Shown: in pieces, positions 2,398 to 18,563 of the stretch
Position numbering within the stretch: position 1 is the stretch's first letter
How the letters are laid out: every line of letters begins with the position of its first letter
NCBI GenBank assembly: GCA_029856435.1
Contig: JAHQXB010000174.1
Coordinates: 1-19,687 of the forward strand
Reading direction: 5' to 3'
Origin: Candidatus Jordarchaeia archaeon
Lineage (GTDB): Archaea > Asgardarchaeota > Jordiarchaeia > Jordiarchaeales > Jordiarchaeaceae
Length of the DNA stretch: 19,687 nucleotides
The notes under the pieces: generated by a model
What the model was told of the DNA's origin: nothing
The model's database searches: none
Seen by the model: the letters and a program-made list of their open reading frames with translations, nothing else
Translations under genes and position numbers: made by a program

Positions 2398-3303
2398 GTG
2401 AGTTTCTTGAGTTACGCGGAACGCAAAATGGTAAAGTTGAGTAAAGATGTTCTGCAGATTCTCTTTAAGCCTTTGAGCAAAAAGGTGATCCGGAGACTGG
2501 TTTCTGGTTGGGGGTTTGGAATCTTTGAAAATTTAGATATCGACGAAATCATAAATATACTAGATGGACGAGAATTGGTAGTAGCGAAGTTTCTAGAACT
2601 TCTGCTTCTCTACGATATGAATTTGGCTTTAAAATTTGGTTTGTGGTCGGTTTACAGCTATTCAAATTCCATCAGGAACATCGATGTCAAAGACTTGGAA
2701 AATTCTCTTAACGGTATCCTGAAAAAAAACAGTTATAAATCATTTCTCAACATTTATGAAATTTCAAAAAATAAGGAGTATTACATAGTATATTCTTACG
2801 AGGATAAGCCCATGTTAATAGAACAATGGGGTTTTAAGTATAATGTGGTGAATAGACTAGCCCGTGTAAGATCCATTTTAGACGTGGAGAAAAAGACACT
2901 GCTAATAGATGCGGAGTCTGAGAAAGAAGGTGAAAAATTCAAAAGAGCCCTAGAAAAAGCACTAAAAACGAAATTCCAACCTGACACTTTCCCGCCATAT
3001 GTTTTGCAAGAATTTGCGGAAAAAGACACAGTCAAAAAAGTGGCTTTTGCATGCGACTCACAATTTAGCGGAGTGGAGGGAATAAAAAAAATCACATTAG
3101 AGGGGAACAATGTTTTTGGCGCCATAAAGGGATTAAGGGCGAGACAGGATATCGACTTCAGAAAAGTGGGGCCACTTATAGAAGCTGAAACCCCTAAACT
3201 CTACATATCCTCCGAAGGAAAACTAGTGTTTAGAGATCAGAAGACCAAAGACCAAGTCCTAAAGAAATTAAGGGAAGCAACAGAAGCGGAAAAGGAATCA
3301 TAA
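2398..3303 (+). CDS. Hypothetical protein, 301 aa (possible CENP-N/Chl4-like fold; see findings)
   Basis: Long ORF with host-like codon usage, divergent from the amidohydrolase. An alternative start is ATG 2428. Confidence 0.8.
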   Translation: MSFLSYAERKMVKLSKDVLQILFKPLSKKVIRRLVSGWGFGIFENLDIDEIINILDGRELVVAKFLELLLLYDMNLALKFGLWSVYSYSNSIRNIDVKDLENSLNGILKKNSYKSFLNIYEISKNKEYYIVYSYEDKPMLIEQWGFKYNVVNRLARVRSILDVEKKTLLIDAESEKEGEKFKRALEKALKTKFQPDTFPPYVLQEFAEKDTVKKVAFACDSQFSGVEGIKKITLEGNNVFGAIKGLRARQDIDFRKVGPLIEAETPKLYISSEGKLVFRDQKTKDQVLKKLREATEAEKES

Positions 3304-3432
3304 ACACCAATATGACTACAAAATTTTAGAAAAATTATTTTAGGCATATACGAAAAGCTTTCATAGCCGCTAACTATTTATCTAGATGAAAATTAAAGGG
3401 ATGGTCCACGATTGAGCCAAGAAAATTTCCAG

Positions 3433-3831
3433 ATGACTTTAAAGGTGATACCCGAAAAATGTGCGGGCTGCCACATATGTGAGCTTGTTTGCAGTTTGTA
3501 TCATTTTAAAGTAAACAACCCCAAGAAATCAAGAATCAGGGTGCAAACTCTTTTCCCTGAACCTGGAATAAATAAGCCCGTGGTTTGTAGACAGTGTAAG
3601 GAACCAGCATGCATGGAAGCATGTCCTGAGGGGGCTATCACCATTGAGCAGGGAACAGTTAAGCTCAACCCTCAAAAATGTACCGGGTGTAGAAAATGCC
3701 TAGAAGCATGTCCCTTCGAAGCCCTCTTTACGCATTCAGACATTCCTTACCCTTTAAAATGTGATTTGTGCAACGGGGACCCCCAGTGTCTAATATGTCC
3801 AAAAGGAGCTATAGTGTTTGTTCCCCGATAA
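3433..3831 (+). CDS. 4Fe-4S multicluster protein (DmsB/HydN-like), likely AOR partner subunit
   Basis: Four Cys clusters: CAGCHICELVC, CRQCKEPACMEACP, CTGCRKCLEACP, KCDLCNGDPQCLICP. Lies directly upstream of the AOR gene. Start ATG 3433 (or TTG 3412). Confidence 0.92.
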   Translation: MTLKVIPEKCAGCHICELVCSLYHFKVNNPKKSRIRVQTLFPEPGINKPVVCRQCKEPACMEACPEGAITIEQGTVKLNPQKCTGCRKCLEACPFEALFTHSDIPYPLKCDLCNGDPQCLICPKGAIVFVPR

Positions 3832-3888
3832 GAAAGTAGGTCAGGAAGCCGCAGGAACCGGTCTAAAGATTAGGAGGGAAAGGGTAAA

Positions 3889-5733
3889 TTGATGGGTGGA
3901 TATATGAACCGGATTTTAAGGATAGATTTGTCCAAGGAAAAAATTGGCGAAGAAAAGCCGGAGAAGGATTGGTCTATTAAGTACATAGGGGGAAGAGGTT
4001 GGGGCGCCAGAAAAGTTTGGGAGTCGGGTATTGACGTAGACCCCTTGGGTCCAGATAATTTGATGTTCTTTGCTTCCGGCCCTCTCACCGGCCTCCTGAT
4101 TCCCTCTGCTGGGAAAATGACCATAGTTTCCATTTCTCCCGCCACAAGAATCTATGCCGATAGCAGTGTGGGGGGAGCCTTTGGCGCTGAACTTAAACAG
4201 GCGGGTTACGATGCTATCGCACTAAGCGGAGTTTCCAAAAAACCCGTGTACATTATGATTGACGATGGCGATGTGGAAATCAGGGACGCGGAGGAATACT
4301 GGGGGATGGGGGCGCTGGCCACTGAGGAACGGTTAAAGAAGGATATTGGGGATAACGGTATCCATGTGTTATCCATTGGCCCTGCGGGAGAAAAACTGGT
4401 GAAGTTTGCTTGTATAACTTCGGACTATGGTAGGAATGCGGGAAGAACAGGCATGGGGGCGATTATGGGCTCCAAAAAATTGAAAGCCATAGTGGTCAGG
4501 GGATTTAAGGATATACCGGTTGCAGATGTAGATAAGTTTTTGGAAATCGCTTACGATTCGTTCAATTCGATTTATGAGAATGAGTTTCTGGACATTTGGC
4601 AGAGGCAAGGCACACTGCAAGTTATAGCTTGGGCCAATGAGAGGGGGGTTTTGCCCACGAGAAACTTTCAAGAAACTATGTTTGAACATGCTGAGGAGAT
4701 AGGGGGAGATAAAATGGAGGAGGTGAAAACCACTGATAGGGCGTGTTTTGCGTGTCCCATGACCTGCGGAAACTACTGTGTGATCAAGGAAGGGAATACT
4801 AAAGTGGTGGTGGAGGGGCCGGAATATGAGACCGCCGCAATGTTGGGTTCGGCTTGTGGAATCAAAGATCTTAAAACGGTGATTAAAGCCAATAATCTCT
4901 GCGACGACTTGGGAATAGACACAATATCCTCTGGAAATCTAGTTGGCCTACTAATGGAGGCCTATGAGAAGGGAATCCTAACCAAAGAGGACACGGGGGG
5001 AATAGAGCTAAAATTTGGAAACGGCGAGGCGCTGCTCAAAATTCTTGAAATGATTGCCAAGAGGGAGGGGATAGGCGACATAGTTGCGGAGGGAGTGAGG
5101 GCGGTGACAGAAAAGTGGCGGGAAATGAAGCCCTTCGCCATCCAAGCTAAGGGGTTGGAACAGAGCGCTTATGATACGAGGGCCTCTCCAGGAATGGCGC
5201 TTGCTTATGCCACCTGTGATGTGGGGGCGCATCACTCTAGGGCGTGGGTTATTTCCAAGGATTTAGAAATGCAGAACAAGTGGACTGCGGAGGAGAGGGC
5301 CAAACTGGTAATATATCACCAGCACATAAGACCTCTGTTCGACTGTTTGGGAGTTTGCAGATTGGAGTGGATAGAGCTATCAGTGGACGAAAACATCTAC
5401 GCAGACTTCTACACTGCGGTAACCGGAGTCAAAACCACATTGAAGAAGCTTCTTGAACGCTCAGAAGCCATCTACAACCTGACACGCGCCATTAATATAT
5501 TAAAGGGAATTTCAAGGAAGGATGACTATCCCCCAGAGAGATTTTTCTGCGACCCTGTGCCCACTGGTCCACTGAAGGGAAAATTGCTTCACAGGGAAGA
5601 ATACGACAATCTTTTGGACACCTACTATAGGCTTAGGGGATGGGACAGTAGAGGTGTACCGACTGAGCGAACCCTATTACGGCTGGGGCTTAAGGACGTA
5701 GCTCTAAAGCTTAAGAAAAGCGGAAAAATCTAG
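3889..5733 (+). CDS. aor: Tungsten-dependent aldehyde:ferredoxin oxidoreductase family protein
   Basis: GGRG, ELKQAGYD, IGPAGE, AGRTGMGAIMGSKKLKAI, CFACPMTC, EGPEYET, CDDLGIDTIS and DCLGVC motifs; 614 aa. Confidence 0.95.
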   Translation: MMGGYMNRILRIDLSKEKIGEEKPEKDWSIKYIGGRGWGARKVWESGIDVDPLGPDNLMFFASGPLTGLLIPSAGKMTIVSISPATRIYADSSVGGAFGAELKQAGYDAIALSGVSKKPVYIMIDDGDVEIRDAEEYWGMGALATEERLKKDIGDNGIHVLSIGPAGEKLVKFACITSDYGRNAGRTGMGAIMGSKKLKAIVVRGFKDIPVADVDKFLEIAYDSFNSIYENEFLDIWQRQGTLQVIAWANERGVLPTRNFQETMFEHAEEIGGDKMEEVKTTDRACFACPMTCGNYCVIKEGNTKVVVEGPEYETAAMLGSACGIKDLKTVIKANNLCDDLGIDTISSGNLVGLLMEAYEKGILTKEDTGGIELKFGNGEALLKILEMIAKREGIGDIVAEGVRAVTEKWREMKPFAIQAKGLEQSAYDTRASPGMALAYATCDVGAHHSRAWVISKDLEMQNKWTAEERAKLVIYHQHIRPLFDCLGVCRLEWIELSVDENIYADFYTAVTGVKTTLKKLLERSEAIYNLTRAINILKGISRKDDYPPERFFCDPVPTGPLKGKLLHREEYDNLLDTYYRLRGWDSRGVPTERTLLRLGLKDVALKLKKSGKI

Positions 5734-5794
5734 GACGCATCACTAAATCAAAATATGTATCTGCGGAGAAGCTGTTTGTTAGATTAATTATAAA

Positions 5795-5842
5795 TTTATA
5801 TAGTAGATGAGGATAACATATATACACCTAAACTCTGGAGGT
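5795..5842 (+). promoter_or_regulatory. TATA box (TTTATATA, 5795-5802) and Shine-Dalgarno (GGAGGT, 5837-5842) upstream of a small ORF
   Basis: Matches the archaeal TATA consensus. The SD is 6 nt before TTG 5849, the same spacing as at 836/848 and 14376/14388. Confidence 0.6.
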
Positions 5843-5848
5843 TCTTGT

Positions 5849-5977
5849 TTGCCTAAACCGTCCAAGAAGAGAAGAAAAAGGGCCAAAAGAGTTAAGGGTC
5901 GCCCACAGGAAATGGATGAAACAGAGGAACTCCAAGAATATTTGGAGTTAGAAGACGAAGTGTTTGAGGATTGGTGA
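5849..5977 (+). CDS. 42-aa basic/acidic microprotein MPKPSKKRRKRAKRVKGRPQEMDETEELQEYLELEDEVFEDW
   Basis: Translated by hand: TTG 5849 to TGA 5975-5977. Has its own TATA and SD and a strongly non-random charge pattern. Below the ORF-track length cutoff. Confidence 0.7.
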   Translation: MPKPSKKRRKRAKRVKGRPQEMDETEELQEYLELEDEVFEDW

Positions 5978-6129
5978 GTTCTCGTTCTAAATATTAATCA
6001 AACTCATAAATTTAGACTGCAAAAGTGGAGGATAGAGTATATAGTTTTGGTCACCGCCTTTAAAAAAAGGTTCTGAGATAGTTTTTCTGTAAACTATCGC
6101 TTTTTGGTGAGAGGTAACTAAGTTTTTGG

Positions 6130-8085
6130 TTGGCTTTGTTGATAACAATAAGCTTTTATGATGCAGATATAATTTTATATTTTGAGGAAGCGATATCGAA
6201 TTGTTTTGGGTGTCCAGTTTTGGAAAGCGTAGAATGTGAAGAACCAGCTAAAAGCGGGTCTCCTCGCCGTAGCAATTTTGGGATACTTGAAATTCTTGTT
6301 GGCGACGGCAAAACAGGAATATCCATCTATACTGTTGGCGGCGGGAAAACCAATGATATTGACATGTCCACAGGCTTGGTTTTTGCATTGGAGCAGGCTA
6401 TAAGGGAGCATTCTGGCTCCGCCAAGGATGTGTTCTTTGGAGGAATTAATGCTTCTGGCGGAATTGGTTGGTGCGTCAAAGAATTCGAGGTTGCTGGAGA
6501 GCCTCGCGAGTTTTACATTGGAGCTGCACTAATGCCGGGGGCCTCTTACTCTTTGGATATTGATATGCTAGAGCAGAAGAATAAAGGTAAAAGGGAATTT
6601 TTCGTTTTTCTCAAAGATTTCCTGTTACCAAGCATAGTTAAACATCTAAATGATTGTGTTGAAAAATTGAGAGAGGTGGGGGGAGAAGCTACCCTGGATA
6701 CTCTTTTAGGGACTGGCGTCTCAGCCTTCAAGCGAGGTGAAGTGAACCAATTGGTGAAGAGTCCTGAAGAATTGGGCGACGCTTGGAAGGTTTTTTCTGG
6801 AGCCTGTACCAAGGCGAGTAAAGAGCAGGGGCTAATTCTGAGGGCTCTTTATGTAGGTAAGAAGGGATTTGTTGATAGTAGGCGTATATGCTCGGAAATG
6901 ATATCGGAATATTTGGAGGACTTGTACTTAGCTCAAAACACCAAATTGGATGGGGCGGAGTGGAGAATTCAGAGAACTTTGGGTCCACTTAAAACTAGCC
7001 CAGATAAGTCTTATGATTCTTGGATTAAACACATCATCTTCACTGGGGCTGAGGGACTCTTCAGTATTAATCCCTCCTGTCCACTTCTTCTGGCTGATAC
7101 GAGAAGCTATTTCGGCATGTGGGAAAATGGGTTAAGAGAGAAGCTTAGAGAGTGGGGAACGAGAAGGAAGGATTTTCTAATTAAAATGAGGTATGGAGCG
7201 AATTTTTTGGATAGTGTGGGTTCAAAGTTTGGATCAGTTTCTTATAAAGAGGTTTCAGAGAGGGAGGAGGAAATCCTGGAATTTCTCTCTTTGAGCATGA
7301 TGGACAAAATATCTGAAGAGTTTCCCCTCACGGCCCTGACTTATGATTTTAAGAAGAAAAGTGTTATAAAAAATGAAATGTTGGAGGTCATAAAAGAGGT
7401 TATCCCAGCGGTGGAGCAAGAGGTTATAGCAGAGCTCTTTGAGAAAGTTAAGGAGGAGGTTTTTGATGTAGAGAAGTTCACAAAGGAGGTTTTCAGTAGG
7501 AAGAAAACCGAAACCATTAGGAAAAAGATAGATGATTGGACAAATAAGCTCTATCGAAGCCTCCAAGAAGCTCTGTACAAGAAGAATATTGTGTTCTCAC
7601 TATTTCCAGAGCCTTTAGAACAGTTCAGAGCAAAAATCGCAGATTTTATCAACGAGAAGGCCATCGCCTGTCTGAAGGACGATGTCGCCTCAGCAATTTT
7701 GCTGGCTTTAAAACTTTTGGAACAGGAAATCAAAGACCCCGAGGCTTTGGTATACCTAGATTTTGTGAAAGAACTGGTTAAAGGGTTTGTGGGAAAAGAG
7801 CTGAGCGCAATATACCCCACTTTGGGGTACCTTCTGAAGGAAGCACAGGTTTTGGATAAGTTGGACGACGCTTTTAAAATCATCATGAAGGATACGGGAT
7901 ACGAAGATGTCAAAATTCTTGAGAATGTTAGCACCGAAATTAAAAGGGTGAGTGAGAGGGAAATCGCGGTAAACAGTAGTGTGGAAAAGGTTTTGGAAGC
8001 AAAGTCTATCATACAAGAGGCTATAAGGAAAATGTTGGCTCGAGGGGAGGGATTAGGAGGAATACTTTTGGGTGATGAGGTTTGA
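6130..8085 (+). CDS. Hypothetical protein, 651 aa; N-terminal longin-like domain plus long helical region
   Basis: The segment GILEILVGDGKTGISIY...DIDMSTGLVFALEQAIREHSG follows the beta-beta-alpha opening of longin-like domains. The remainder is Glu/Lys-rich and helical. Start uncertain. Confidence 0.75.
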   Translation: MALLITISFYDADIILYFEEAISNCFGCPVLESVECEEPAKSGSPRRSNFGILEILVGDGKTGISIYTVGGGKTNDIDMSTGLVFALEQAIREHSGSAKDVFFGGINASGGIGWCVKEFEVAGEPREFYIGAALMPGASYSLDIDMLEQKNKGKREFFVFLKDFLLPSIVKHLNDCVEKLREVGGEATLDTLLGTGVSAFKRGEVNQLVKSPEELGDAWKVFSGACTKASKEQGLILRALYVGKKGFVDSRRICSEMISEYLEDLYLAQNTKLDGAEWRIQRTLGPLKTSPDKSYDSWIKHIIFTGAEGLFSINPSCPLLLADTRSYFGMWENGLREKLREWGTRRKDFLIKMRYGANFLDSVGSKFGSVSYKEVSEREEEILEFLSLSMMDKISEEFPLTALTYDFKKKSVIKNEMLEVIKEVIPAVEQEVIAELFEKVKEEVFDVEKFTKEVFSRKKTETIRKKIDDWTNKLYRSLQEALYKKNIVFSLFPEPLEQFRAKIADFINEKAIACLKDDVASAILLALKLLEQEIKDPEALVYLDFVKELVKGFVGKELSAIYPTLGYLLKEAQVLDKLDDAFKIIMKDTGYEDVKILENVSTEIKRVSEREIAVNSSVEKVLEAKSIIQEAIRKMLARGEGLGGILLGDEV

Positions 8086-9554
8086 AAATACCAGTACCTG
8101 CAGTTGAATTGTACAAAAATTACCAGAAGGCCATCAGCGAGATAAATCAAGCCTGGACCTCTTTTAACTTAGTTGAAGCTTTAACAAGAGAATTGAAAGG
8201 TATTAACATGATGACCTGTAAGGATTTGAGAGATGAGATAACTAGTATTTACGATGAGTTAATGAAGAATTTGAGTTCCATCAAAAAATCCCAAGACACC
8301 AAGGAATCGAAAAAAACCCAAAGTAGGCTGGAAAAGCTGGAAAAGAAACTGGATGTGGAGCAAAATTCCATTGATTCTGTGGGCAAACTAAAAAAGTATG
8401 TTGAGCAGAGGAAAAACTGGGTCTGGAACAAAATTATGAATGAGGAGCAAAAAAAGGTTAATTTCAATCTCAGCGAGACGATAGCTAATTTTAGCTTAAT
8501 CCCACCAGTGAGTGTAATGCTAGGCATAGGAGTTAAGGACGCATACCAGAATATCTGTGACATAGCCAAGAGTGAACGAGAGACCATAGAGAAAATTATC
8601 GAGTTCATAAAAGACGAGAAACCAGCATTAGAGGAACAGTTAAGGCAACTAGTCAAAAAACTAGAAATTTTCCGGGAACTGGAGCAAAAAATGGAAAAGG
8701 TTGTTAAGAATTATAAAAAATTTGAAAAGATTCTTGAAACCCCACACCCGCTTTTTCAGCTGGATAAAGTTATTCTGGAGGAGGTTTGTCAAGAGTTTAC
8801 CGTTGATCCCTTTTTCAAGAGTGGTAGCGAGTTAGTGGAAACCTACATGGACTTGGCATTCTGGGATGATGATAAAACTCCAGCGGTTAAAAAACTGATA
8901 AATTATGTGTTTCTGCAGTCTCTTGGGAGGAAAATTCCATCAAAGACTATGGTTGAGCGATTCAAAGAGATTCTAAAGAGGGGCGGAGAAGAATTTGACA
9001 TTGAAAAAGCCGCCAAAAAAGTTTTGGAAGAGTATATGGCTCAGTTTAACCTTTATTGGCAGGTACAGATGATGAGCGTAGAATTGGCACTCTTGGCGCC
9101 TGAACTGTGGAAGAAGTATAAAAACAAGGAGGATAGAACCAAAGAGTATGAATCCATTAAATTGGACATTAACAATATAGAGAAAGACCTTCCGCAATTT
9201 GTTGTCGAAGATGGTTTACCAACAATGGAGTTAGGCACAATAAGTATGGAATTTTTTGGTGACCAGAAAAAAGCGGTAGCAGAGTGTTTCGGTGAAGGAG
9301 CTTACAAATTTATAGAAAAGGAGGGGGGCAACGTGGAGGTGAAACTCACATTTCCTTGGCTTAAAAATTTGGATCCCACCTCCAATTCTCTGAGAGCGTG
9401 GCTGAGAGCCTATACTTGGAATAAATTCATGAAAGAAAAGGGAAGAAAATATCAAGCTTACCAGAAAATAATGAGCCTTTACGGTTCTGGGACAGAAGCA
9501 GAGTTTAAGAGGTTTATGGAGTACATGAAGGAAGTTATTCATGACGGTAAATGA
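8082..9554 (+). CDS. Hypothetical helical/coiled-coil protein, 490 aa
   Basis: TTGA start/stop overlap with the upstream gene and an SD-like GGTGATGAGG before it. Heptad-like stretches (RLEKLEKKLDVE, LEEQLRQLVKKLEIFRELEQKME). Confidence 0.8.
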   Translation: MKIPVPAVELYKNYQKAISEINQAWTSFNLVEALTRELKGINMMTCKDLRDEITSIYDELMKNLSSIKKSQDTKESKKTQSRLEKLEKKLDVEQNSIDSVGKLKKYVEQRKNWVWNKIMNEEQKKVNFNLSETIANFSLIPPVSVMLGIGVKDAYQNICDIAKSERETIEKIIEFIKDEKPALEEQLRQLVKKLEIFRELEQKMEKVVKNYKKFEKILETPHPLFQLDKVILEEVCQEFTVDPFFKSGSELVETYMDLAFWDDDKTPAVKKLINYVFLQSLGRKIPSKTMVERFKEILKRGGEEFDIEKAAKKVLEEYMAQFNLYWQVQMMSVELALLAPELWKKYKNKEDRTKEYESIKLDINNIEKDLPQFVVEDGLPTMELGTISMEFFGDQKKAVAECFGEGAYKFIEKEGGNVEVKLTFPWLKNLDPTSNSLRAWLRAYTWNKFMKEKGRKYQAYQKIMSLYGSGTEAEFKRFMEYMKEVIHDGK

Positions 9555-10208
9555 TTAAGGGTCTAAGCCCAATATTTTTCTCAAAATTTTTTCCAGCTCA
9601 TTCCTATCGAGAAGTCCTACAATTTCACCAACCTTTTTCTTCTCATCAAGAATATAAACGGTGGGCAATTTTTTGATTCTACTTTTGAAAACCTCTTTTA
9701 TTTTACCAGAGAATTTCATTTTAACGATAGAGTCCCCTTCGCATAATTGCATTTTCTCAACTGTTTCCCTTAATGTTCTTTCAAATTCTACACATTTTTG
9801 GGCACCTGACGTAAAAAACAGGAAGAGCAGTTTTCTGTGAATCTTCTCAAAGCTGAGCAAATTATACATACACTCTCTACAGATGTTCTCGGGATCGAAT
9901 AGACTGGTAGCCAACCTGTACAATTCACTAAACACTTCCTCAAAGACTAATTTCCCTCTCACCCTAATCGGCAAACCCGTGGAGCCACAACGGATTAGTC
10001 CAGAATTATCAGCATATAGAATATCATAACAGGCATTCTCATCATTTGTAGGCAAATCTATTTCAACATGGACAGGTAAAACAAGGGATAATGGGTGAAG
10101 CTCACTCCTCCCAAGGCAAAAATATTCCTCCTTATATTTAAAAAGGCAGGGACAAATATGATAAACACTTTTAACAACCTTTTCCTCACCCATAAGGAAA
10201 GCCGCCAT
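9555..10208 (-). CDS. Cys-rich N-terminal domain fused to a C-terminal thioredoxin-like domain with a degenerate CxxC
   Basis: The C-terminal ~95 aa fit the Trx pattern: FLFFTSGAQKC (AxxC at the CxxC position), IKKLPTVYI (cis-Pro site), IVG..DRNELEKIL. ORF track starts at GTG 10364, but a TATA-like box near 10247-10258 favours ATG 10208 or 10193. Confidence 0.65.
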   Translation of the reverse strand: MAAFLMGEEKVVKSVYHICPCLFKYKEEYFCLGRSELHPLSLVLPVHVEIDLPTNDENACYDILYADNSGLIRCGSTGLPIRVRGKLVFEEVFSELYRLATSLFDPENICRECMYNLLSFEKIHRKLLFLFFTSGAQKCVEFERTLRETVEKMQLCEGDSIVKMKFSGKIKEVFKSRIKKLPTVYILDEKKKVGEIVGLLDRNELEKILRKILGLDP

Positions 10209-10511
10209 TAAAAGCTTAGAAGCATGTTTATGGTGTCCTTGAGGATTTAAATATAAAAAATTTCTGATAAAACCGTTCCCCCAAAAATTGCAAGTGTGGA
10301 GTAAAAATTTTTCGATTTTAAGTAGCTTCAATTTTAAATTTACGTTTTTGCTTCTTTTTTCCACTTAAAGCGGAAAGAACCAATCCTATCAAAAAATAAA
10401 ATAAAAGGTTAGAGGGGAATAAACACAAACACGGTAAATTTAACATTATCATATAGTTTTAACTCTATCGGCGGGAGGTCTCCCTGTGAGGGGGGATGAG
10501 AGCCCATAGTC

Positions 10512-10518
10512 TTATAAA
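10512..10518 (+). promoter_or_regulatory. TATA box (TTATAAA) just inside the element's left end
   Basis: Archaeal TATA-like motif positioned to drive transcription into the element. Activity not demonstrated. Confidence 0.45.
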
Positions 10519-10672
10519 GGCATAGTTGTATTAGAATGGCGATGTAGAATTGTTCGGTTTCGCCTCAAAAAAGGGGTGTTTATAGGGCTTCTTTCACGAT
10601 TTGGAGCCTTATTAGGGAGATGGAACCGAATAAATCTGCATCACCAAATATGAAGCTAGAAAAGTTTTTATA

Positions 10673-10700
10673 TCATACCAACCAAATTGGGTTGGTATGA
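10673..10700. repeat. Perfect 11-bp inverted repeat with 6-nt loop, overlapping the LAGLIDADG start codon
   Basis: TCATACCAACC (10673-10683) / AAATTG / GGTTGGTATGA (10690-10700). The ATG is at 10697-10699. Confidence 0.9.
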
Positions 10701-11098
10701 ACGATACTGATTTAGCATATATTGCAGGATTTTTTGATGGTGAAGGTAGCATATTTATTTCCAAGTCGAAAAAGCAATACTTTCTTACTGTAAGCATTAG
10801 CAATACGAATCTACCTGTATTAGAGAGTATAAGAGCTATGGGTGGAAATATATCGAAAAGCCCAGACAATCGTGAGAATCATTCTCAGCTTTTTAGGCTG
10901 AGATTATATTGTAATGAGGCAAAGAAGTTCTTAGAAAAGATACTACCTTACCTCAGAATCAAGAAAGAGCAAGCAAAATTAGCAATAGAGTTTCAGTCTA
11001 AAATGGAGTTGGGAAAACTCACCATTCCAAAGGAAGAACAGGAGAAATATAGAATTCAAATCAACATATTTAACAAAAAGAGACGAGAAAGCTGGTAG
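10697..11098 (+). CDS. Single-motif LAGLIDADG homing endonuclease (I-CreI-like, predicted homodimer), 133 aa
   Basis: LAYIAGFFDGEGSI motif with the acidic catalytic residue present, beta-saddle strands, and FLEKILPYLRIKKEQAKL matching the I-CreI-type helix/Lys pattern. Confidence 0.92.
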   Translation: MNDTDLAYIAGFFDGEGSIFISKSKKQYFLTVSISNTNLPVLESIRAMGGNISKSPDNRENHSQLFRLRLYCNEAKKFLEKILPYLRIKKEQAKLAIEFQSKMELGKLTIPKEEQEKYRIQINIFNKKRRESW

Positions 11099-11225
11099 GA
11101 TAGTGATAAAGGTGAACCCAAGAGGAACATCAAAAGAACATATGGAAATAGAGGGTAGAGATTATAGAGCCTCACTAAACATATTGAAGAGAGGCTTATC
11201 GGGGCCGGCCCTATGCGCCTGCTGA
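11088..11225 (+). pseudogene. tnpB: 3' remnant of tnpB (IS200/IS605 RNA-guided nuclease)
   Basis: Hand translation in frame 3: KAGRIVIKVNPRGTSKEHMEIEGRDYRASLNILKRGLSGP. This carries the TnpB 'V.P..TS' and RuvC-III 'RD.nAs.NIl' motifs, has no Zn-ribbon, and has no start or RuvC-I/II upstream. Confidence 0.8.
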
Positions 11226-11327
11226 GATGGAACCCCTACTGGTAGAGATACCGGCAAACTCCATTATTGAAGCAGGAAGCCCCTTCCAATAGGGAGGGGC
11301 AGTTCACTAAGCTTAAAGAGTATATAA
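11090..11327 (+). ncRNA. Putative omegaRNA (reRNA)-like scaffold, with guide-equivalent flank 11308-11327
   Basis: Inferred from position: TnpB guide RNAs overlap the tnpB 3' end and right end, and take their guide from the adjacent flank. GC-rich stem-forming sequence lies at 11200-11300. Boundaries approximate; expression unknown. Confidence 0.45.
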
Positions 11328-11398
11328 TAGGGAAAAACCAAAAACATAATTAGTGCAGAAAACAAAATAGGTATTAAGTTAGATTGGGATGTGATAAA

Positions 11399-11608
11399 TT
11401 GTCTGATAAAGCAAGCGACCAACTAATAAAATTTCTCTCGAAAAAAGGCGACTACTACGTTGAACTCGCCCAACAGCATCTTCACGACAATGAACCTGAA
11501 AAGGCGAAGGAGCTGCTCGAGAGCGCAGTCAACTTCTACAGCAAAGCCGGATTAAAGGATAAGATTGAAGAAACAAGGAAAAGAATAGAAGCCATAGGAA
11601 AAAAATAG
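11399..11608 (+). CDS. Small helical-hairpin (TPR-like) hypothetical protein, 69 aa
   Basis: GDYYVELAQQH...PEKAKELLESAVNFYSKAG resembles a single TPR/SNAP-like repeat. Start TTG 11399 (ORF track: 11384). Confidence 0.65.
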   Translation: MSDKASDQLIKFLSKKGDYYVELAQQHLHDNEPEKAKELLESAVNFYSKAGLKDKIEETRKRIEAIGKK

Positions 11609-11699
11609 TAGCCAAATGTTAAATTTCTTGTTCGTTTGGATATAATTACAGAGTAGCCTCCAGAAATTTAGCCTTTATTTTAAAAAGGGTGGAAGTCTG

Positions 11700-12743
11700 C
11701 TATTGGAATCCGACGCCGTCAATTTTGGCTCCGCATTTGGGGCACTTTGAATCCTTAATTTTATTTGCTAAAATGCTGAAGCCGTATCTGCGAATCAACA
11801 TTTCCCCACAATTGTAGCAGAAGGTATTTGCTCCCTCTTCGCCTGGAATGTTGCCCTCATAAACATATCTTAAACCCTCCTCCAATCCGATCCTCCTAGC
11901 CTTACGTAGGGTTTCTGGAGGAGTGGGGGGTTTCCCAGTTAATTTATAGGCGGGGTAGAAAGCTGTAACGTGCCAAGGTATCTCTTCGCCCACGCCTTTA
12001 ATGAAGCGCGCAATCTGTCTCAGTTCATCGTCGGAATCGTTGAGACCGGGGATTATGAGCGTGGCTATCTCTATCCAAATCCCCAACTCTTTGTAAAGTT
12101 TGATTGATTCAAGCAGCGGCTCCAATCTGGCGCCGCATATTTTGCGATAGAAATCATCGCTGAAACTTTTCAAATCAATGTTTGCAGCGTCCAAGTAGGG
12201 AGCAATGGTTCTAAGCGCCTCTTCACCAATGTATCCATTGGTGACAAAAATATTTTTCAATCCTTCCTTGCTTGAGATTTTAGCGATGTCATAGGCGTAT
12301 TCGAAAAATATTGTGGGTTCAGTATAAGTATAGGAGATGCTCCTGCACCCCTGTGCTATGGCGTCTCTGACAATTTCTGCAGGAGTTAAGTTCTCTCCCA
12401 CTATCATACGTCTATCTCTGGGCATCTGAGAGATTTCGTAGTTTTGACAGTGTTCACACCTAAAGTTGCAACCTGGTGTAGCAATAGAGTAGGTATCTGT
12501 TCCGGGAAGGAAATGGTATAGGGGCTTCTTCTCCACTGGGTCCACATTTATGGAAACCACTTTTCCGTAGACCAGCGAATACAGGGTACCGCCTCTATTT
12601 TCTCTCACGGCGCAGATTCCAGTTTTTCCATCTGCAATAATGCATTCGTGGCGGCAAAGGTGGCACTGCACCCTGTTATCTTCCAACTTTTCATAAAACA
12701 TAGCTTCTCTCGTATTAATCCCATCCAAATATGTACACGTCAC
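11700..12743 (-). CDS. amrS: AmmeMemoRadiSam system radical SAM enzyme
   Basis: VQCHLCRHEC...GICAVREN, DPVEKKPLYHFLPG, radical SAM motif CNFRCEHCQN, SYTYTEP and C-terminal CYNC/CPKC. True start may be ATG 12701. Confidence 0.92.
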   Translation of the reverse strand: MTCTYLDGINTREAMFYEKLEDNRVQCHLCRHECIIADGKTGICAVRENRGGTLYSLVYGKVVSINVDPVEKKPLYHFLPGTDTYSIATPGCNFRCEHCQNYEISQMPRDRRMIVGENLTPAEIVRDAIAQGCRSISYTYTEPTIFFEYAYDIAKISSKEGLKNIFVTNGYIGEEALRTIAPYLDAANIDLKSFSDDFYRKICGARLEPLLESIKLYKELGIWIEIATLIIPGLNDSDDELRQIARFIKGVGEEIPWHVTAFYPAYKLTGKPPTPPETLRKARRIGLEEGLRYVYEGNIPGEEGANTFCYNCGEMLIRRYGFSILANKIKDSKCPKCGAKIDGVGFQ

Positions 12744-12752
12744 CTTTAAAAT

Positions 12753-12827
12753 TAAGTTTATCTCGCATTAAATAGTTTCGAGTCCTAATTCACTAAACCT
12801 CACATGTACTAAATAAGTTATCTCGCA
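12753..12827. repeat. Direct repeat TAAGT(T)TATCTCGCA x2 in the amrS/acd divergent intergenic region
   Basis: Copies at 12753-12767 and 12814-12827. The shared core TTATCTCGCA recurs exactly 60 bp apart. Confidence 0.7.
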
Positions 12828-12882
12828 GGATAGTGCAAAAGGTTAAATCCTAGGAAGAAACCGTTTTGAAAAGATAGACTGG

Positions 12883-14307
12883 TTGACGGTGAGAATTTTG
12901 AGGGAAGACTCGAGCCTTGAGACATTCTTTAGTCCCAAGTCTGTGGCTATAATAGGCGCTAGTGAAAAGCTCAGATTTGGATACTTTGTAACAAAGAGTA
13001 TTCTTGCCCGCACCGATATGAGAGCTTATCCAGTACACATTAGTGCCGATAAGGTTATGGGTGTTAAGGCTTACAAATCTGTGAAGGATATTCCAGAAGT
13101 CGTGGATTTAGCAATTTTTCTTGTTCCAAGCGAAGCCGCCCCAACTGCTATACGGGAATGCGCTGAGAAGGGAATAAAGCATGTGATAGTTCTCTCCGCA
13201 GGCTTCGCCGAGGTAGACGAAGTTGGCAAACAGAGACAAGAAGAAATTGTGAGGGTAGCGAGGGAAAACGGAATCCGGGTCATAGGTCCAAACTGTGTTG
13301 GTGTAACCAACGTGTCGAACCGATTTACCACAGCTGAAATTGATATAGATAGTTTGAAGGAGGGAAGCGTAGCCTTCATAGCCCAGTCGGGTATATTTGG
13401 AACTGTGATAATAGATTGGGCCGCCGCCAATGAGTTTGGACTGAGCAAAATCGTAACGCTGGGTAACAAGTGTGATGTTGACGAAGTAGACCTCCTAAAC
13501 TATTTGGAAAAAGACGATAAAACCAGAGTTATCTGCTTGTACTTGGAAGGAATAAAAAAGGGGAGGGGAAGAGAATTTATTGAAACATTTAAACGAGTAT
13601 CCAAAAATAAGCCGATTCTAGTCCTCAAAAGTGGAAGAACCCAAACAGGTGCCAGAGCGGTGAGGAGCCATACGGGAAGCCTCGCCGGCGATGATCGAAT
13701 ATTTGACGCGGTTCTCAAACAGACCGGGGCACTGAGAGTGGACAGCGTTGAAGAACTCCTTGACTTTGCAAAAGTCTTGGCCACTCAGCCACTTCCCAAA
13801 AGTGAAGGAATCGCAATAATAACTAATTCAGGCTCACTGGCTGCCATGACCTGCGACGAACTAGAAAAATTGCACATGGAATTGACTAGCTTTGAGCCTC
13901 AAACAACTGAAAAGATGAGAAAGATTGCTCCCTACTGGACATCCATCAAAAACCCTGTAGATATTGGTCCAGCTATGTTGCAGATCGGATCCCAAATATT
14001 GGAAGCAGTTCTTGAGGATAAAAACGTGGGGTGCTTACTAATAATTTCCTCACCTCCCGGAATACTGGTTAAGAAGAATGGTATGGGTTTAGATTTGGTG
14101 CCCTTCTACAAGGTTTACAAAAGAATAATTGATAAACACCGGGAAAAAGCCATCATCTTCTCAAGCTTCGGGGACTACGACACGGTTCAGGCAGCCAAAG
14201 AAGTTTTCGAAAAATCGGGAATACCAGTAGTAAGCTCTGTTCAGAATGCGGCAAGAGCAATAGCCGCCCTCTACCAATACAAGAAATATTTAGAAAAGAG
14301 TAAATAG
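12883..14307 (+). CDS. acdA: NDP-forming acyl-CoA synthetase (acetate--CoA ligase type), alpha subunit
   Basis: FFSPKSVAIIGAS CoA-binding domain, RVIGPNCVG, AQSG, LGNKCDVDE, LYLEG, phospho-His motif SHTGSLAG, and TNSG. No ATP-grasp domain. Substrate specificity unknown. Confidence 0.88.
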   Translation: MTVRILREDSSLETFFSPKSVAIIGASEKLRFGYFVTKSILARTDMRAYPVHISADKVMGVKAYKSVKDIPEVVDLAIFLVPSEAAPTAIRECAEKGIKHVIVLSAGFAEVDEVGKQRQEEIVRVARENGIRVIGPNCVGVTNVSNRFTTAEIDIDSLKEGSVAFIAQSGIFGTVIIDWAAANEFGLSKIVTLGNKCDVDEVDLLNYLEKDDKTRVICLYLEGIKKGRGREFIETFKRVSKNKPILVLKSGRTQTGARAVRSHTGSLAGDDRIFDAVLKQTGALRVDSVEELLDFAKVLATQPLPKSEGIAIITNSGSLAAMTCDELEKLHMELTSFEPQTTEKMRKIAPYWTSIKNPVDIGPAMLQIGSQILEAVLEDKNVGCLLIISSPPGILVKKNGMGLDLVPFYKVYKRIIDKHREKAIIFSSFGDYDTVQAAKEVFEKSGIPVVSSVQNAARAIAALYQYKKYLEKSK

Positions 14308-14387
14308 CCAAAAGAGACTAATCATTTTCAAATAACTGTTTACTCATTTATTTACAAAATGGGAATTAATGTTTTGGAGAGATTAGT

Positions 14388-14696
14388 ATGGTTAAAGAAG
14401 CAATTGTCATGGAGCCCAAAGACAATGTAGCAACCGTCATAGAAGACGTAGAACAGGGAACAAGTATCCAAGTAAATATAGGTGGAAAAACAAAGAGTAT
14501 TAAAGTAAAGCAGAAGATTCCATTCGGCCACAAGTTCGCAATAATAAAGATACCCAAAGGAGAGAAGGTAATTAAATATGGTGAAGTAATAGGGTTGGCC
14601 AGTCAACCTATCGATGAGGGAGAACACGTCCACGTCCACAATGTGGAAAGCGTCTACTCCAAAGAGTTGGTGCAGGAAAGGAGGGAAAAGAAATGA
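14388..14696 (+). CDS. UxaA family SAF-domain small subunit (altronate dehydratase / SuyA-like)
   Basis: DNVAT, IPFGHKFA, GEKVIKYGEVIG and GEHVHVHNVES motifs. SD GGAGAG 6 nt before the ATG. Confidence 0.9.
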   Translation: MVKEAIVMEPKDNVATVIEDVEQGTSIQVNIGGKTKSIKVKQKIPFGHKFAIIKIPKGEKVIKYGEVIGLASQPIDEGEHVHVHNVESVYSKELVQERREKK

Positions 14697-15853
14697 GTTT
14701 CCAAGGATTCAGAAGGGACGACGGAACAGTTGGAACAAGAAACAACATTCTAGTAATTTCAACCGTGGTTTGCGCCAACCAAGTCGCATTAAACGTAGCC
14801 AACAATGTAGAAGACGCAGTCTCCATCACGCACCCCATGGGATGCGGGCACCTAGGGGCAGACTTCATGCGGGTTTTGTCCACCCTTGTAGGTTTTGGAA
14901 AAAACCCCAACGTCGCAGCCGTATTAGTGGTGGGGCTAGGATGCGAAAACATGTCAGCTAAACTGGTCGCCGACGAGATTGCAAAGTCCAAGAAGCCAGT
15001 ACAGTACATAAACATCCAAGACGAGGGAGGAACCCTAAAAGCCACCAAAAGGGGAACAGAAATACTGTTGGCCCTCTCTGAGGAGGCTTCCGAGTATACC
15101 CGAGAAAAATGTGACTTAAGCGAGCTAATACTGGGCTTGGAGTGCGGTGGATCCGACGCCACCTCAGGACTAGTGGCAAACCCTGCAGTGGGAGTAGCAG
15201 CAGACATGGTGGTGAAAGCCGGGGGAACAGTTATTCTGCCAGAAGCCACGGAGTGGATAGGAGCCGAACACCTCCTGGCAAGAAGGGCAGTAAACGAGGA
15301 TGTTAAAAATAAAATCTATGCCACAGTGGACAGGTACATAAACAGGGTTCTCTCCATGGGCATCGATCCTCGGGGTTCACAACCGACTCCGGGAAACATT
15401 GCCGGCGGTATAACTACCATAGAGGAGAAATCACTGGGAAACATTTGCAAGGCAGGGTACTCAGCCGTCCAAGGAGTATTGAACTATGCAGAGAAACCTC
15501 CCGGAAAAGGGTTGTATCTTATGGACGAACCGGGACTGGATGTTGAATCAATTACTGGCCTGGCGGCTGCGGGGTCGCAGATAATAACTTTTACCACTGG
15601 CTTGGGTACCCCAGCAGGAAGCCCCATAGCTCCGGTAATCAAAATAACTGGCAACCACCGCACATTTGAGAAAATGAGTGATAACATAGATATCGATGTG
15701 AGCAGCGTTTTGGAAGGCAAGGAAAACCTGAAACAGGCGGGTGAGAGAATTTTCAAAGTGATTCTGGAAGTAGCCTCAGGAAAAAGAACAAAAGCCGAAA
15801 CACTTAAAAATCGGGAATTCGCCATCTACAGAGCCTGGCAATACATGGTCTAA
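14693..15853 (+). CDS. UxaA family dehydratase/lyase large subunit (altronate or galactarate dehydratase / SuyB-like)
   Basis: GFRRDDGTVGTRN, HPMGCG, VVGLGCE, ECGGSDATSG..ANP, GNIAGGITTIEEKSLG and FTTGLG motifs. ATGA overlap with the small subunit. Confidence 0.92.
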   Translation: MSFQGFRRDDGTVGTRNNILVISTVVCANQVALNVANNVEDAVSITHPMGCGHLGADFMRVLSTLVGFGKNPNVAAVLVVGLGCENMSAKLVADEIAKSKKPVQYINIQDEGGTLKATKRGTEILLALSEEASEYTREKCDLSELILGLECGGSDATSGLVANPAVGVAADMVVKAGGTVILPEATEWIGAEHLLARRAVNEDVKNKIYATVDRYINRVLSMGIDPRGSQPTPGNIAGGITTIEEKSLGNICKAGYSAVQGVLNYAEKPPGKGLYLMDEPGLDVESITGLAAAGSQIITFTTGLGTPAGSPIAPVIKITGNHRTFEKMSDNIDIDVSSVLEGKENLKQAGERIFKVILEVASGKRTKAETLKNREFAIYRAWQYMV

Positions 15854-15897
15854 AAACATTTTAAAGAAAGAAAATAGAGGGAAGGGATTGGTTGGGC

Positions 15898-17145
15898 TTA
15901 GAGGCCAATTTCTCTGAATAGTTCCCTCTGGGTGAGGAAGCGCATAATTTCGGAGCTTCCGGCACTTATCTGTCCTATTTTTACGTCCCGGTAGTATCTT
16001 TCTATGGGGTACTCTTTGGTGTAGCCTATTCCTCCCAGTATCTGTAGTGCTTCTGAGCAGATTTTCACAGCTGCGTCTGCGGCGAAGAATTTAGCTATGG
16101 CGGCCTCCTTTGTGGCTCTACGATCAGCGTCAATCATTCTTGCAGCCCTAAGATCTAACAGTCTTGAGGCCTCAAGGAGAGAGTACATTTCTGCTAGTTT
16201 GAAACTCACTCCTTCAAATTCTCTTATGGCTCTTTTGAATTGCATTCTTTCGGCAGAGTATTTAAGGGCGATTTCAAATGCTGACCGGGCTATTCCCATA
16301 TACTGGCTGGCTGCGAAAACTCTTTCTCCGTCAAGTCCACTCATAAGGATGTTGAAGCCCTTATTTTCTTGTCCCAGGAGGCAGATGTCGGGAACCCAGC
16401 AGTCCTTGAATGCCAAGTGAGAATTTTTTGAGCCCCGTCTTCCCATTAGTTCATAGTCTTTTATAACTTTGAAGCCCTCAGTGTTGGTAGGGAATATGAA
16501 TGCACTTATTCCCTCGTTGGGTTTAACATTGGGGTTAGTTATCACGTATAGCAGGAGGTAGTCTGCCTTTGAACCGTTGGTTATGAATCTTTTTTCTCCA
16601 TTTATTATGTATCCGTCTCCGCTTTTTTTGGCGCTGCACCGCATTCCTCCCACTACGTCGCATCCCGCTCCAGGCTCGGTCATGGCTATTGCTCCCAGTT
16701 TTTCTCCGTGCATTATCGGTTTTAGGAATTTTTCATGCTGCTCTTTTGTTCCAAATTTTATGATGGGCATAGCGTAAAGGGCGGCTGAGGCTCCATAGGT
16801 CACTGCGGTAGCATAGCTTATGGCGGTTAGTTCTTCGCCCATTATGGTTCTGTAGACTAGTCCTTTTCCGCCGCCTCCTATTTCTTTGGGGAAAGCCAAA
16901 CTGTAGTATCCCGCTTTTCCCATTTTTTTGAGTATTTCGTGTATTAGGTCGAAGTTTTCTTCGCGGTCTATTCTGTCAGCTACTGGTTCCACTTCCTTTT
17001 TCACAAATTTTCTGAATTCCTGCCGGAATTTGTTTTCTTCCTCGGTATATAGAAAAAGGCTTCCTTCAAATGTGCTGTAGCCGAAATCCACTTTTAATTC
17101 TTCAAAGGATATGTGACCCTCTTTGGGCAATCTCATCACCTTCAA
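15898..17145 (-). CDS. Acyl-CoA dehydrogenase
   Basis: AMTEPGAGCD, INGEKRFITNG, MGRRGS, LDGERV, QFKRAIREFEGVSFKLA, QILGGIGY and ISAGSSEIMR motifs. Confidence 0.95.
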   Translation of the reverse strand: MKVMRLPKEGHISFEELKVDFGYSTFEGSLFLYTEEENKFRQEFRKFVKKEVEPVADRIDREENFDLIHEILKKMGKAGYYSLAFPKEIGGGGKGLVYRTIMGEELTAISYATAVTYGASAALYAMPIIKFGTKEQHEKFLKPIMHGEKLGAIAMTEPGAGCDVVGGMRCSAKKSGDGYIINGEKRFITNGSKADYLLLYVITNPNVKPNEGISAFIFPTNTEGFKVIKDYELMGRRGSKNSHLAFKDCWVPDICLLGQENKGFNILMSGLDGERVFAASQYMGIARSAFEIALKYSAERMQFKRAIREFEGVSFKLAEMYSLLEASRLLDLRAARMIDADRRATKEAAIAKFFAADAAVKICSEALQILGGIGYTKEYPIERYYRDVKIGQISAGSSEIMRFLTQRELFREIGL

Positions 17146-17300
17146 ACAGAATATTTCTCACTAAATTTTACAGGTTCTATTTTTTGTGGATATTACCCTT
17201 TTGCACTTCAGATGAGTGAAGATTTATAAAAAAGTTGTTATTCCCTTATTGGGAAGCGTTTTAGCTTTTGGAGATAAATGCATTTATAAGTTTGTTGGTT

Positions 17301-18299
17301 CTATCCTTTTTTTCTGTGTTCCAAGGCCTGGGGGTTAACAAGGCAGGGGGGAACTTCGCCCTTCAAGGCACTTACCGTGTTTTCAGCGGCTAACATTGCC
17401 ATGCCTTTTCTGGTTTCTAAAGTTGCAGAGCCTATGTGTGGCGTTAACACCACGTTTTTAAACTTTAGCAGAGGATTATCGGCGCTAATCGGTTCCACAT
17501 CGAAAACGTCTAAAGCCGCACCCTTTATTCTGCCTTCGGCTAGGGCTTCGCAGAGGGCTTTCTCATCTATTACTGGTCCACGTGAGGTGTTTATTAGGTA
17601 GGCGGTTTTTTTCATTTTGTTTATTTCTTTTCTACCAATCATGCCTCGAGTTTCTTTGGTCAGGGGAACATGGAGAGAAACAAAGTCGGAAAGGGATAGA
17701 AGTTCCTCCAAAGAGACGTATTTTACACCTAGGCTTTTTTCCTTCTCCAAGTCTCTGGTGGGCTGGTAGTAAATAATGTTCATTTTGAAGCATTTTGCTC
17801 TCTGTGCCACAGCGGTTCCGATTCTTCCTAGACCAACAATTCCCAAGGTTTTGTTTTTTAGATCCGTTCCAAGGAGCAGGTTGGGGTGCCAGCCCTTCCA
17901 CAGTCCGGCCCTCACAAAGGAGTCCGCTTCAGGTATTCTTCTGGCAACAGCTAAGATTAGTGCAAGGGTCAAATCGGCTGTGGCGTCGTCTAAAACGCCG
18001 GGAGTATTTGTCACAAATATTCCTTTTCTCGTCGCAGCTTCAACATCTATGTTGTCGTAGCCAACCGCGACATTGGAGACGACCTCCAGATTTACCGCCT
18101 GATTAATTATCTCAGCATCTATCCTGTCTGTGAGCAAAGTTACAAGCCCATGAACCCTCTTAACCTGTTTGATGAGCTCACCCTTATCGGGGCTAGTTTC
18201 TTTTGGGTGTACCTCAACCTCCGCATTTCCTTTGAGAAGTTCAAGTGCCTCCTTGGCGATTTGCCCTGTCACAAAAACTCTCTTCAATTCTCGCACCAT
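17301..18299 (-). CDS. gyaR: D-isomer-specific 2-hydroxyacid dehydrogenase (glyoxylate reductase / D-glycerate dehydrogenase type)
   Basis: NVAVGYDNID, TNTPGVLDDATAD, GIVGLGRIG, INTSRG, ALDVFDVEP and PHIGSAT motifs. Start moved to ATG 18299 (MVRELKRVFVTG). Confidence 0.9.
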   Translation of the reverse strand: MVRELKRVFVTGQIAKEALELLKGNAEVEVHPKETSPDKGELIKQVKRVHGLVTLLTDRIDAEIINQAVNLEVVSNVAVGYDNIDVEAATRKGIFVTNTPGVLDDATADLTLALILAVARRIPEADSFVRAGLWKGWHPNLLLGTDLKNKTLGIVGLGRIGTAVAQRAKCFKMNIIYYQPTRDLEKEKSLGVKYVSLEELLSLSDFVSLHVPLTKETRGMIGRKEINKMKKTAYLINTSRGPVIDEKALCEALAEGRIKGAALDVFDVEPISADNPLLKFKNVVLTPHIGSATLETRKGMAMLAAENTVSALKGEVPPCLVNPQALEHRKKG

Positions 18300-18529: not shown

Positions 18530-18563
18530 ACTCTATGTAGAAAATCACAGAATTACATAGAGT
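18530..18563. repeat. Perfect 10-bp inverted repeat with 14-nt spacer at the 3' end of the tnpB pseudogene
   Basis: ACTCTATGTA (18530-18539) / TACATAGAGT (18554-18563). Confidence 0.75.

Follow-up and report, generated by a model that had tools for sequence, protein, structure and literature searches.

A LAGLIDADG homing endonuclease gene in a decayed IS200/IS605 element of a Jordarchaeia archaeon: probable invasion of tnpB rather than its replacement

Background

Insertion sequences (IS) of the IS200/IS605 type encode TnpB, an RNA-guided homing nuclease that is the ancestor of Cas12. In a 19,687-nucleotide (nt) stretch of DNA from a Candidatus Jordarchaeia archaeon (GenBank assembly GCA_029856435.1, contig JAHQXB010000174.1, positions 1 to 19,687; the whole stretch is referred to here as the window), positions 10463-11307 hold a LAGLIDADG homing endonuclease gene (HEG) together with a C-terminal remnant of tnpB, set between ends like those of an IS200/IS605 element. 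An earlier note on this DNA took the arrangement for an IS200/IS605 shell in which the RNA-guided nuclease had been replaced by a LAGLIDADG enzyme. The locus therefore raises the question of whether one homing nuclease has been exchanged for another, or whether the endonuclease gene came to lie between these ends by a different route. Comparing the locus with its relatives, we conclude that the insert is very probably a decayed IS200/IS605 element whose tnpB gene was invaded by a LAGLIDADG HEG and was then mostly deleted, so that one selfish DNA is nested in another. TnpB is parasitised by this LAGLIDADG lineage, not swapped out.

In the literature that could be searched (reviews and papers on IStrons and TnpB), we came upon no account of LAGLIDADG genes residing within tnpB, and a Thiomargarita paper that names both LAGLIDADG and IS605 handles them separately. 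The locus would present a protein-guided homing endonuclease that lives by invading tnpB itself, with three selfish layers, namely a miniature inverted-repeat transposable element (MITE), a HEG and an IS, within 845 bases.

Results and discussion

Boundaries and ends of the inserted element

The 845 bases at window positions 10463-11307 form a discrete insertion. We searched for empty alleles by comparing the locus with 40 related genomes, and in three genomes of the same genus (G001, G003 and G004), where the flanking 160 nt are 87-96% identical, the flanks are joined as ...ATAGTTTTAA|TGAGCTTAAAGAG.... The empty alleles read TTTAA|T[AG]AGC, the left flank in these genomes ending T[TA]TAA, and there is no target duplication. 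Because the flanks are directly joined, the limits of the element are exactly 10463 and 11307, and both the ends and the empty site agree to the base with what the earlier note had predicted. Insertion 3' of TTTAA without target duplication is the signature of IS200/IS605 transposition, and the same pentanucleotide precedes the insertions of the related loci L024, L025, L028, L029 and L031. The features of the locus are the following.

10458-10462, + strand: TTTAA target pentanucleotide, abutting the 5' side of the element (from the empty alleles and the relatives)
10463-10537, + strand: left end (LE) of IS200/IS605 type, with an inner hairpin at 10478-10497, then GATGAGAG and a promoter-like AT-rich stretch
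10538-10645, + strand: 108-bp MITE with 20-nt terminal inverted repeats (GGTGATGTAGAATTGTTCGG.../...CCGAATAAATCTGCATCACC), at the putative deletion joint
10646-10661, + strand: putative 16-nt remnant of the tnpB N part, ..Y-E-A-R-K, corresponding to ..YKAE of the relatives (from positional alignment with L024-L028)
10662-10696, + strand: cassette leader of 35 nt, with a TATA-like TTTATA at 10667-10672, 24 nt before the ATG, and a hairpin
10697-11098, + strand: intact single-motif LAGLIDADG homing endonuclease gene, 133 aa (from Pfam, fold and Ka/Ks)
11091-11225, + strand: tnpB C-terminal remnant (AGRIVIKVNPRGTS...RDYRASLNILKRGL), 44 aa at 11091-11222 and a stop codon at 11223-11225, without Zn ribbon
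11226-11307, + strand: right end (RE), with GGAAG, a 9-bp hairpin with an AATA loop (11279-11300) and AGTTCAC, cleavage falling after TCAC

Both ends bear subterminal hairpins and not terminal inverted repeats, as in IS200/IS605 elements, the left hairpin being weak. At the RE, for which the earlier note had given GAAG, a hairpin and TCAC, the hairpin folds at -8.9 kcal/mol (z -2.4). Homologues of this end are found in L025, L026, L028, L029, L031 and L047, tnpA/tnpB elements being among them, and in at least 15 miniature IS copies in the window's own genome; every one of them diverges from its own flanks directly after TTCAC. GGAAG...TTCAC is kept across the right ends of the IS family, and the RE lies within the stretch that encodes the guide-RNA scaffold in elements of this kind. 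The IS200/IS605 shell that the note had described is in these respects borne out. Its left-end hairpin fares less well: the LE has the layout of the family (TTTAA|C.., an outer helix, an inner hairpin and GGGGATGA, as in L025, L028, L029 and L031), but its fold (-5.1 kcal/mol, z +0.9) is no better than that of shuffled sequences, whereas the relatives reach -13 kcal/mol (z ~-4). By BLASTN the window LE has no match to the LEs of the relatives, the likeness consisting of layout and short motifs only.

There is no tnpA, and so no Y1 HUH transposase gene, within 10463-11307. We therefore regard the window element as a non-autonomous derivative; L028, L029 and L031 do have tnpA. Searching for a cognate transposase, as the earlier note had proposed, yielded two tnpA genes elsewhere in the window's genome, whose LEs share the GGGGATGA motif and have related but different hairpins; mobilisation of the window element by them in trans is doubtful because its LE is weak. 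The note had also proposed to look for further copies and for empty alleles. The latter exist in the three genomes named above, but the element and its HEG are single-copy.

In keeping LE and RE, lacking a transposase and entering its target without duplication, the element is like the PATE/MITE-like derivatives of IS200/IS605; unlike these, it holds an intact passenger HEG and is single-copy.

The endonuclease gene lies at a fixed codon of tnpB

The protein collection contains 84 relatives of the endonuclease, the best 23 of which are 57-90% identical and 82-214 aa long. In six close loci, where the endonuclease gene is 79-91% identical to that of the window, the gene lies inside tnpB; these comprise all five of the contigs fetched for the closest relatives and one locus from a genome scan. 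The order in L024, L025, L026/27, L028 and L032 is TnpB-N (~310 aa, with HTH_OrfB_IS605 and OrfB_IS605), HEG, TnpB-C, and in L028 tnpA lies upstream.

L028 and L029 represent one locus in two samples, with 1544 nt of upstream sequence at 100% identity and 484 nt of downstream sequence at 99.6%. Their sole difference is a 439-nt cassette, present in L028, within an otherwise intact 404-aa tnpB that belongs to a 1739-bp tnpA+tnpB element. The empty site in L029, ...TACAAGGCTGAAA|GAGCTGGTAGG..., encodes YKAE|RAGR, and the cassette is made up of a 43-nt leader and the open reading frame (ORF), which borrows its stop codon from tnpB. L030 joins L029 on the empty side, so that the site is polymorphic for presence and absence of the cassette. 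What this pair shows holds for a relative whose protein shares 87% identity with that of the window, and not for the window copy; the pair would provide a natural definition of the target of a compact (133-135 aa) meganuclease family.

The insertion codons, (Y/D)KAE|xAG, fall between the RuvC-II and the Zn-ribbon/RuvC-III segments of TnpB. Because the HEG sits within tnpB at this one fixed codon in the relatives, we place the homing site in tnpB and not at TTTAA|TAAGC. Two proposals of the earlier note are thereby set aside, namely that the LAGLIDADG enzyme replaces TnpB as homing module and that it cuts the empty donor site. Its suggestion that the gene rides in elements moved by TnpA holds: tnpA is present in L028, and the composite, HEG-bearing IS is found at different genomic sites in different metagenome-assembled genomes (MAGs).

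These observations bear directly on the idea of a functional chimera, in which the LAGLIDADG enzyme would take over the cutting of the vacated donor site from TnpB, or in which the HEG would use IS605 ends with TnpA supplied in trans. Such a chimera would account for real ends around an empty site of exactly the predicted form, for an endonuclease ORF that is intact and under purifying selection, for the presence of two tnpA genes whose LEs carry GGGGATGA, and for a HEG that travels as IS cargo, as its differing loci in differing MAGs imply. We nevertheless hold it to be very unlikely. The filled/empty pair at one codon identifies tnpB as the target; the shell without tnpB (LE-HEG-RE) was seen once, at the window locus, with a MITE at its joint, and not among the other loci; and the hairpin of the LE folds no more stably than shuffles of it do. 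The earlier note had itself considered that a single occurrence would point to a one-off accident, and this description fits the shell without TnpB. Furthermore, a 2026 review argues that protein-guided endonucleases are unfit for the restorative homing of transposons, whose target changes with every move (PMC13565253, section 6.3); this argument on enzymes of fixed specificity, which cannot retarget after each transposition, weakens the view that one nuclease was swapped for the other.

In several loci that carry the cassette, tnpB is decaying. Its N part has frameshifts in L024, L025 and L032, is broken in L047 and is missing from the window through deletion; five loci (the window and L024, L025, L026 and L032) have no Zn ribbon. 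Retention of the HEG while tnpB decays follows the course usual for homing endonucleases, in which decay comes after invasion, and HEG invasion would explain a class of tnpB annotations that appear split or truncated. A different interpretation is that of a gene in pieces: the split tnpB would give a working nuclease of two polypeptides, its C part re-initiated at a GTG directly behind the HEG stop, and the HEG would be nearly cost-free to the IS. In L026/L027 and L028 both parts indeed remain open, the N part over ~312 aa, the gene call in L026 being a 77-aa ORF that begins 8 nt past the HEG stop, and the C part without Zn ribbon is alike across five diverged loci. Set against this, the frameshifts and the deletion in the N part, together with a loss of the Zn ribbon that suggests decay, make a two-piece nuclease quite unlikely in our view.

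Two further observations concern individual loci. In L047, from a Thermoproteota MAG, ~1.4 kb (L047:1567-2980), possibly a further insertion, parts tnpB-N from an N-terminally truncated HEG. L032, labelled candidate division WOR-3, and L024 share the same locus with near-identical flanks and a HEG Ks of 0.026; that differently labelled MAGs share one locus points to faulty binning or labelling of one of the two.

A covarying helix flanks the insertion point

The tnpB sequence either side of the insertion point forms a helix of ~18 bp, and clear compensatory changes are evident when family members are compared. It is seen at L029:1510-1580 and at the tnpB/HEG junctions of L028, L026, L024, L032 and L025, and is therefore shared by alleles that carry the endonuclease gene and alleles that lack it. 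The codons for LLxY and GRxVV make up its arms, and AAGGCTGAAAGAGCTG forms the apical loop, in which the insertion point lies. The helix possibly plays a role in guide-RNA processing or in expression control, or possibly it is only the target of the endonuclease; it may simply supply the near-palindromic DNA that a homodimeric enzyme favours. Tested as a plain 11+11 palindrome, the homing site gave no significant result. In either case, attention is drawn to a conserved hairpin-coding site in tnpB. Bacterial tnpB genes (L033, L059, L113 and L115) show a weaker long-range pairing across the same site.

A helix of this kind would bring both junctions of the cassette together, as might be expected if the cassette were an intron, of the archaeal bulge-helix-bulge type or of group I, that is spliced from the tnpB mRNA and leaves TnpB functional. 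Archaeal introns with LAGLIDADG genes are known (PMC13565253), and extension of the HEG ORF into the downstream exon, as observed here, is found in many intron HEGs. The flanking helix occurs in HEG-free alleles too, however, and whether the junctions or the entire cassette are folded, both junctions fall within a large open multiloop, with no 3-nt bulges around a 4-bp helix. Only 43 nt of the cassette are non-coding, no Rfam intron model matches even at E up to 10, the same type of insertion occurs in bacteria as well, and tnpB decays once invaded. Bacteria are not known to possess a splicing endonuclease for bulge-helix-bulge introns. We consider an intron highly improbable; a bulge-helix-bulge intron was rejected on the junction folds, and a group I or group II intron or an IStron on the lack of a ribozyme core (Rfam) with so little sequence outside the ORF. 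Rfam scans, one covering the window and a more sensitive one covering 10380-11400, found no relevant RNA family, and ARAGORN found no tRNA. IStrons, in which a group I intron is fused to an IS200/IS605-type element, are alike in combining a second selfish element with a TnpB-encoding element of IS605 type, but they flank and splice out, whereas the second element here lacks a ribozyme and lies inside tnpB, which it disrupts.

LAGLIDADG domains are also common in inteins, and the endonuclease could in principle be part of a protein-splicing element of TnpB. This we regard as practically out of the question and have rejected: stop codons part TnpB-N from the HEG and the HEG frame stops inside tnpB; the frame relation varies by locus (same in L028, different in L026); and all 133 aa belong to the endonuclease fold, which leaves no room for Hint blocks. 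The possibility of an intron or intein at this site, which the earlier note had raised against its own proposal, thus finds no bulge-helix-bulge motif, ribozyme or intein feature in its favour.

Taken together, the covarying helix, the open N part and a C part able to restart behind the HEG stop may point to continued expression of HEG-bearing tnpB, whether through rejoining at the RNA level or as a two-piece nuclease, but this seems unlikely. Were it true, RNA-guided nuclease genes of archaea and bacteria would tolerate the cassette much as they would an intron, and the place where it sits would show where TnpB can naturally be split.

The endonuclease is predicted to be an I-CreI-like homodimer

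The ORF at 10697-11098 matches the Pfam families LAGLIDADG_3 (2.8e-8) and LAGLIDADG_1 (4.5e-7), and its catalytic acid, E16, is invariant in 24 sequences. Profile searches match I-MsoI, I-CvuI and I-CreI at ~24% identity, and the AF2 model (pLDDT 89) has the same three enzymes as its best Foldseek matches (TM 0.74-0.77). The fold, alpha-beta-beta-alpha-beta-beta-alpha, is that of the homodimeric LAGLIDADG class. Pfam, AF2 and Foldseek thus all support the intact ORF recognised in the earlier note.

When two copies were modelled together, the score was 0.74, compared with 0.28 for the best control, with the motif helix as interface; at least 80% of contacts recur between runs, and the partner pLDDT is at least 84. 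Among proteins solved as pairs, 20 of 30 reach this mark, as does 1 of 23 solved as single chains. Like complexes have already been solved, and the pass is therefore a likeness that may reflect memory, not proof. On this modelling we predict that the window enzyme is an I-CreI-like homodimer. With I-CreI, I-MsoI and I-CvuI it shares the single motif, the fold, the catalytic acid and the predicted dimer via the motif helix, but its family is shorter (133-135 aa), shares only ~24% identity with them, has no group I intron host, and has its target in a protein-coding transposon gene.

Pairwise Ka/Ks values among the HEGs are 0.04-0.12 at Ks 0.03-2.3, and 0.05-0.10 between the window and its relatives; judged by these substitution patterns, the gene is under strong purifying selection. 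Its start codon is held in an 11-bp hairpin at 10673-10700 (-10.6 kcal/mol, z -4.3). Both this hairpin and the leader motif TTTAT(A/C) are kept in 6/6 close relatives, and the box would fit an archaeal promoter for a leaderless message.

Additional N-terminal modules were seen in some relatives of the endonuclease. One (L033:1103-1666) has an extra stretch of ~55 aa that is helix-turn-helix-like, and two others (P0024 and P0026) have CxxC-rich, zinc-ribbon-like heads.

Remnants of tnpB and a MITE in the window

In the window, the last three codons of the endonuclease ORF and its TAG stop derive from tnpB, whose own reading frame there is a different one. The tnpB C-terminal remnant that begins there, and that the earlier note had reported, matches the intact 404-aa TnpB P0086 by BLASTP (E=5e-5); the alignment has a gap of 22 residues where the Zn ribbon would be. 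At the DNA level, 10661-11135, which takes in the HEG cassette and the first part of this remnant, is 79-85% identical to the relatives. Just upstream of the cassette, the 16 nt at 10646-10661 align with the end of the tnpB N part, at 11/15 identical positions, which is weak by itself. These 16 nt and the 108-bp MITE before them had escaped the earlier note.

The MITE belongs to a family of 93-124 genomic copies at 93-98% identity (BLASTN at two sensitivities). Of 71 full copies, 56 have a target duplication of 8-11 bp; the window copy has none, and its right edge adjoins what would be the last codons of the former tnpB N part. Other copies lie, for example, at C90:34601-34708 and C43:5876-5983 of G000, and the family also occurs in same-genus genomes. 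A second variant family, ~75% similar, is represented for example at C103:1612 and C55:236.

We found no close tnpB relative in the window's genome by tblastn with the 40-aa remnant and with the TnpB-N of L028, nor any site within 6 mismatches of the 26-bp tnpB target in the window's assembly. For these reasons we consider the endonuclease to be stranded in this genome.

A proposed course of invasion, spread and decay

We hypothesize the following course of events. A free-standing, homodimeric I-CreI-like HEG would have specialised on one tnpB site, (Y/D)KAE|xAG. Its enzyme would cut tnpB copies without a HEG, and repair from a HEG-bearing copy would propagate the cassette; the IS copies would offer many targets, and TnpA transposition and horizontal transfer would carry the cassette onward. 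Insertion of the cassette would split tnpB, which would then degenerate. The window copy would represent a late stage, in which an IS already bearing the cassette and a C part without Zn ribbon inserted 3' of TTTAA after the split from the three same-genus genomes. A MITE-associated deletion would then have taken out the tnpB N part, along with tnpA had there been one, leaving the LE, the MITE, an intact HEG, the tnpB C-remnant and the RE as a non-autonomous, single-copy element.

The aligned sequences directly show where the element begins and ends, that the HEG is nested in tnpB, that alleles with and without the insertion exist, and that the HEG is under purifying selection; cleavage and homing, promoter use and the mechanism of deletion are what we infer from them. 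Several points weigh against this account. Most distant relatives of the endonuclease lie in contexts other than tnpB. Cutting of the tnpB site by the enzyme is presumed from the position of the cassette, and the site forms no more than a modest pseudo-palindrome (half-sites matching at 7/11 positions around GAAA, with a 4-nt central gap), having p ~0.007 at a centre chosen post hoc and 22% for any centre in a 60-nt window. Pairwise Ka/Ks cannot speak for the current activity of the window copy itself. The identification of the 16 nt as a remnant of the first tnpB exon, and of the MITE as agent of the deletion, is likewise presumptive, and the element may have arrived whole and decayed in place or have arrived already shortened, both of which fit alike. 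The conserved flanking helix, finally, leaves some small room for rejoining at the RNA level.

A close known counterpart of the invasion of tnpB is the 'intronless homing' of free-standing HEGs that split host genes, examples being the phage seg and mob genes and the split-gene cases in phages. The self-contained cassette with neither intron nor intein, the fixed site in a conserved gene and the filled and empty alleles, identical in all else, are alike. Here, however, the host gene is the nuclease gene of another mobile element, the tnpB of IS200/IS605; the HEG product is a LAGLIDADG homodimer of very small size, not a GIY-YIG or HNH enzyme; and the setting is archaeal and bacterial chromosomes, not phages.

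Distribution of the tnpB-associated endonucleases

Among 165 collected loci, 13 (12 non-redundant) have the gene at the same position of tnpB, after (Y/D)KAE and before xAG..V.V.P..TS..C. Distant HEGs at this position are those of L033, L034, L047, L058, L059, L113, L115 and L200, and the MAG labels of their hosts include Pyrinomonadaceae, Ktedonobacteraceae, Isosphaeraceae and Thermoproteota. By phylum, they fall in Acidobacteria, Chloroflexi, Planctomycetes and Thermoproteota. The flanks were screened for tnpB with a narrow home-made TnpB profile and C-terminal motifs; since the screen is narrow, and iterating the profile did not widen its reach, these counts, and with them a share in tnpB of about 12 of 164 sampled loci, are lower bounds. 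In a FastTree phylogeny, 12 of the 13 tnpB-associated HEGs fall in one clade of 16 leaves (SH-like support 82), and the label of tnpB association changes 5 times on the tree, as against 12.7 times in shuffles. Within the window's phylum the gene is rare: 5 of 400 genomes have any relative of the HEG, and a close one occurs in the window only. In G009, a truncated HEG copy is followed by a tnpB C part.

The RE-proximal ~90 nt of the element (window 11216-11308) recur at 75-89% identity in many copies in G032 (7 listed), G012, G023, G018 and G038. Because these repeats recur in other genomes, we take the IS family to be widespread in the phylum even without an endonuclease gene.

The window's genome also contains a miniature, PATE-like IS200/IS605 family of ~300 bp, with copies at C21:51415-51715, C127:4840-5117, C36:17032-17304 and C158:8630-8900 (G000) and at least 11 more. 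Its members have an LE hairpin CCCCTTCC-GAAA-GGGAGGGG, a tnpB C-terminal remnant RDLNACVNIA and an RE ending GGGGTAGTTCAC, and are inserted after TTTTA; the copy in C78 has an extra internal insertion of ~290 bp.

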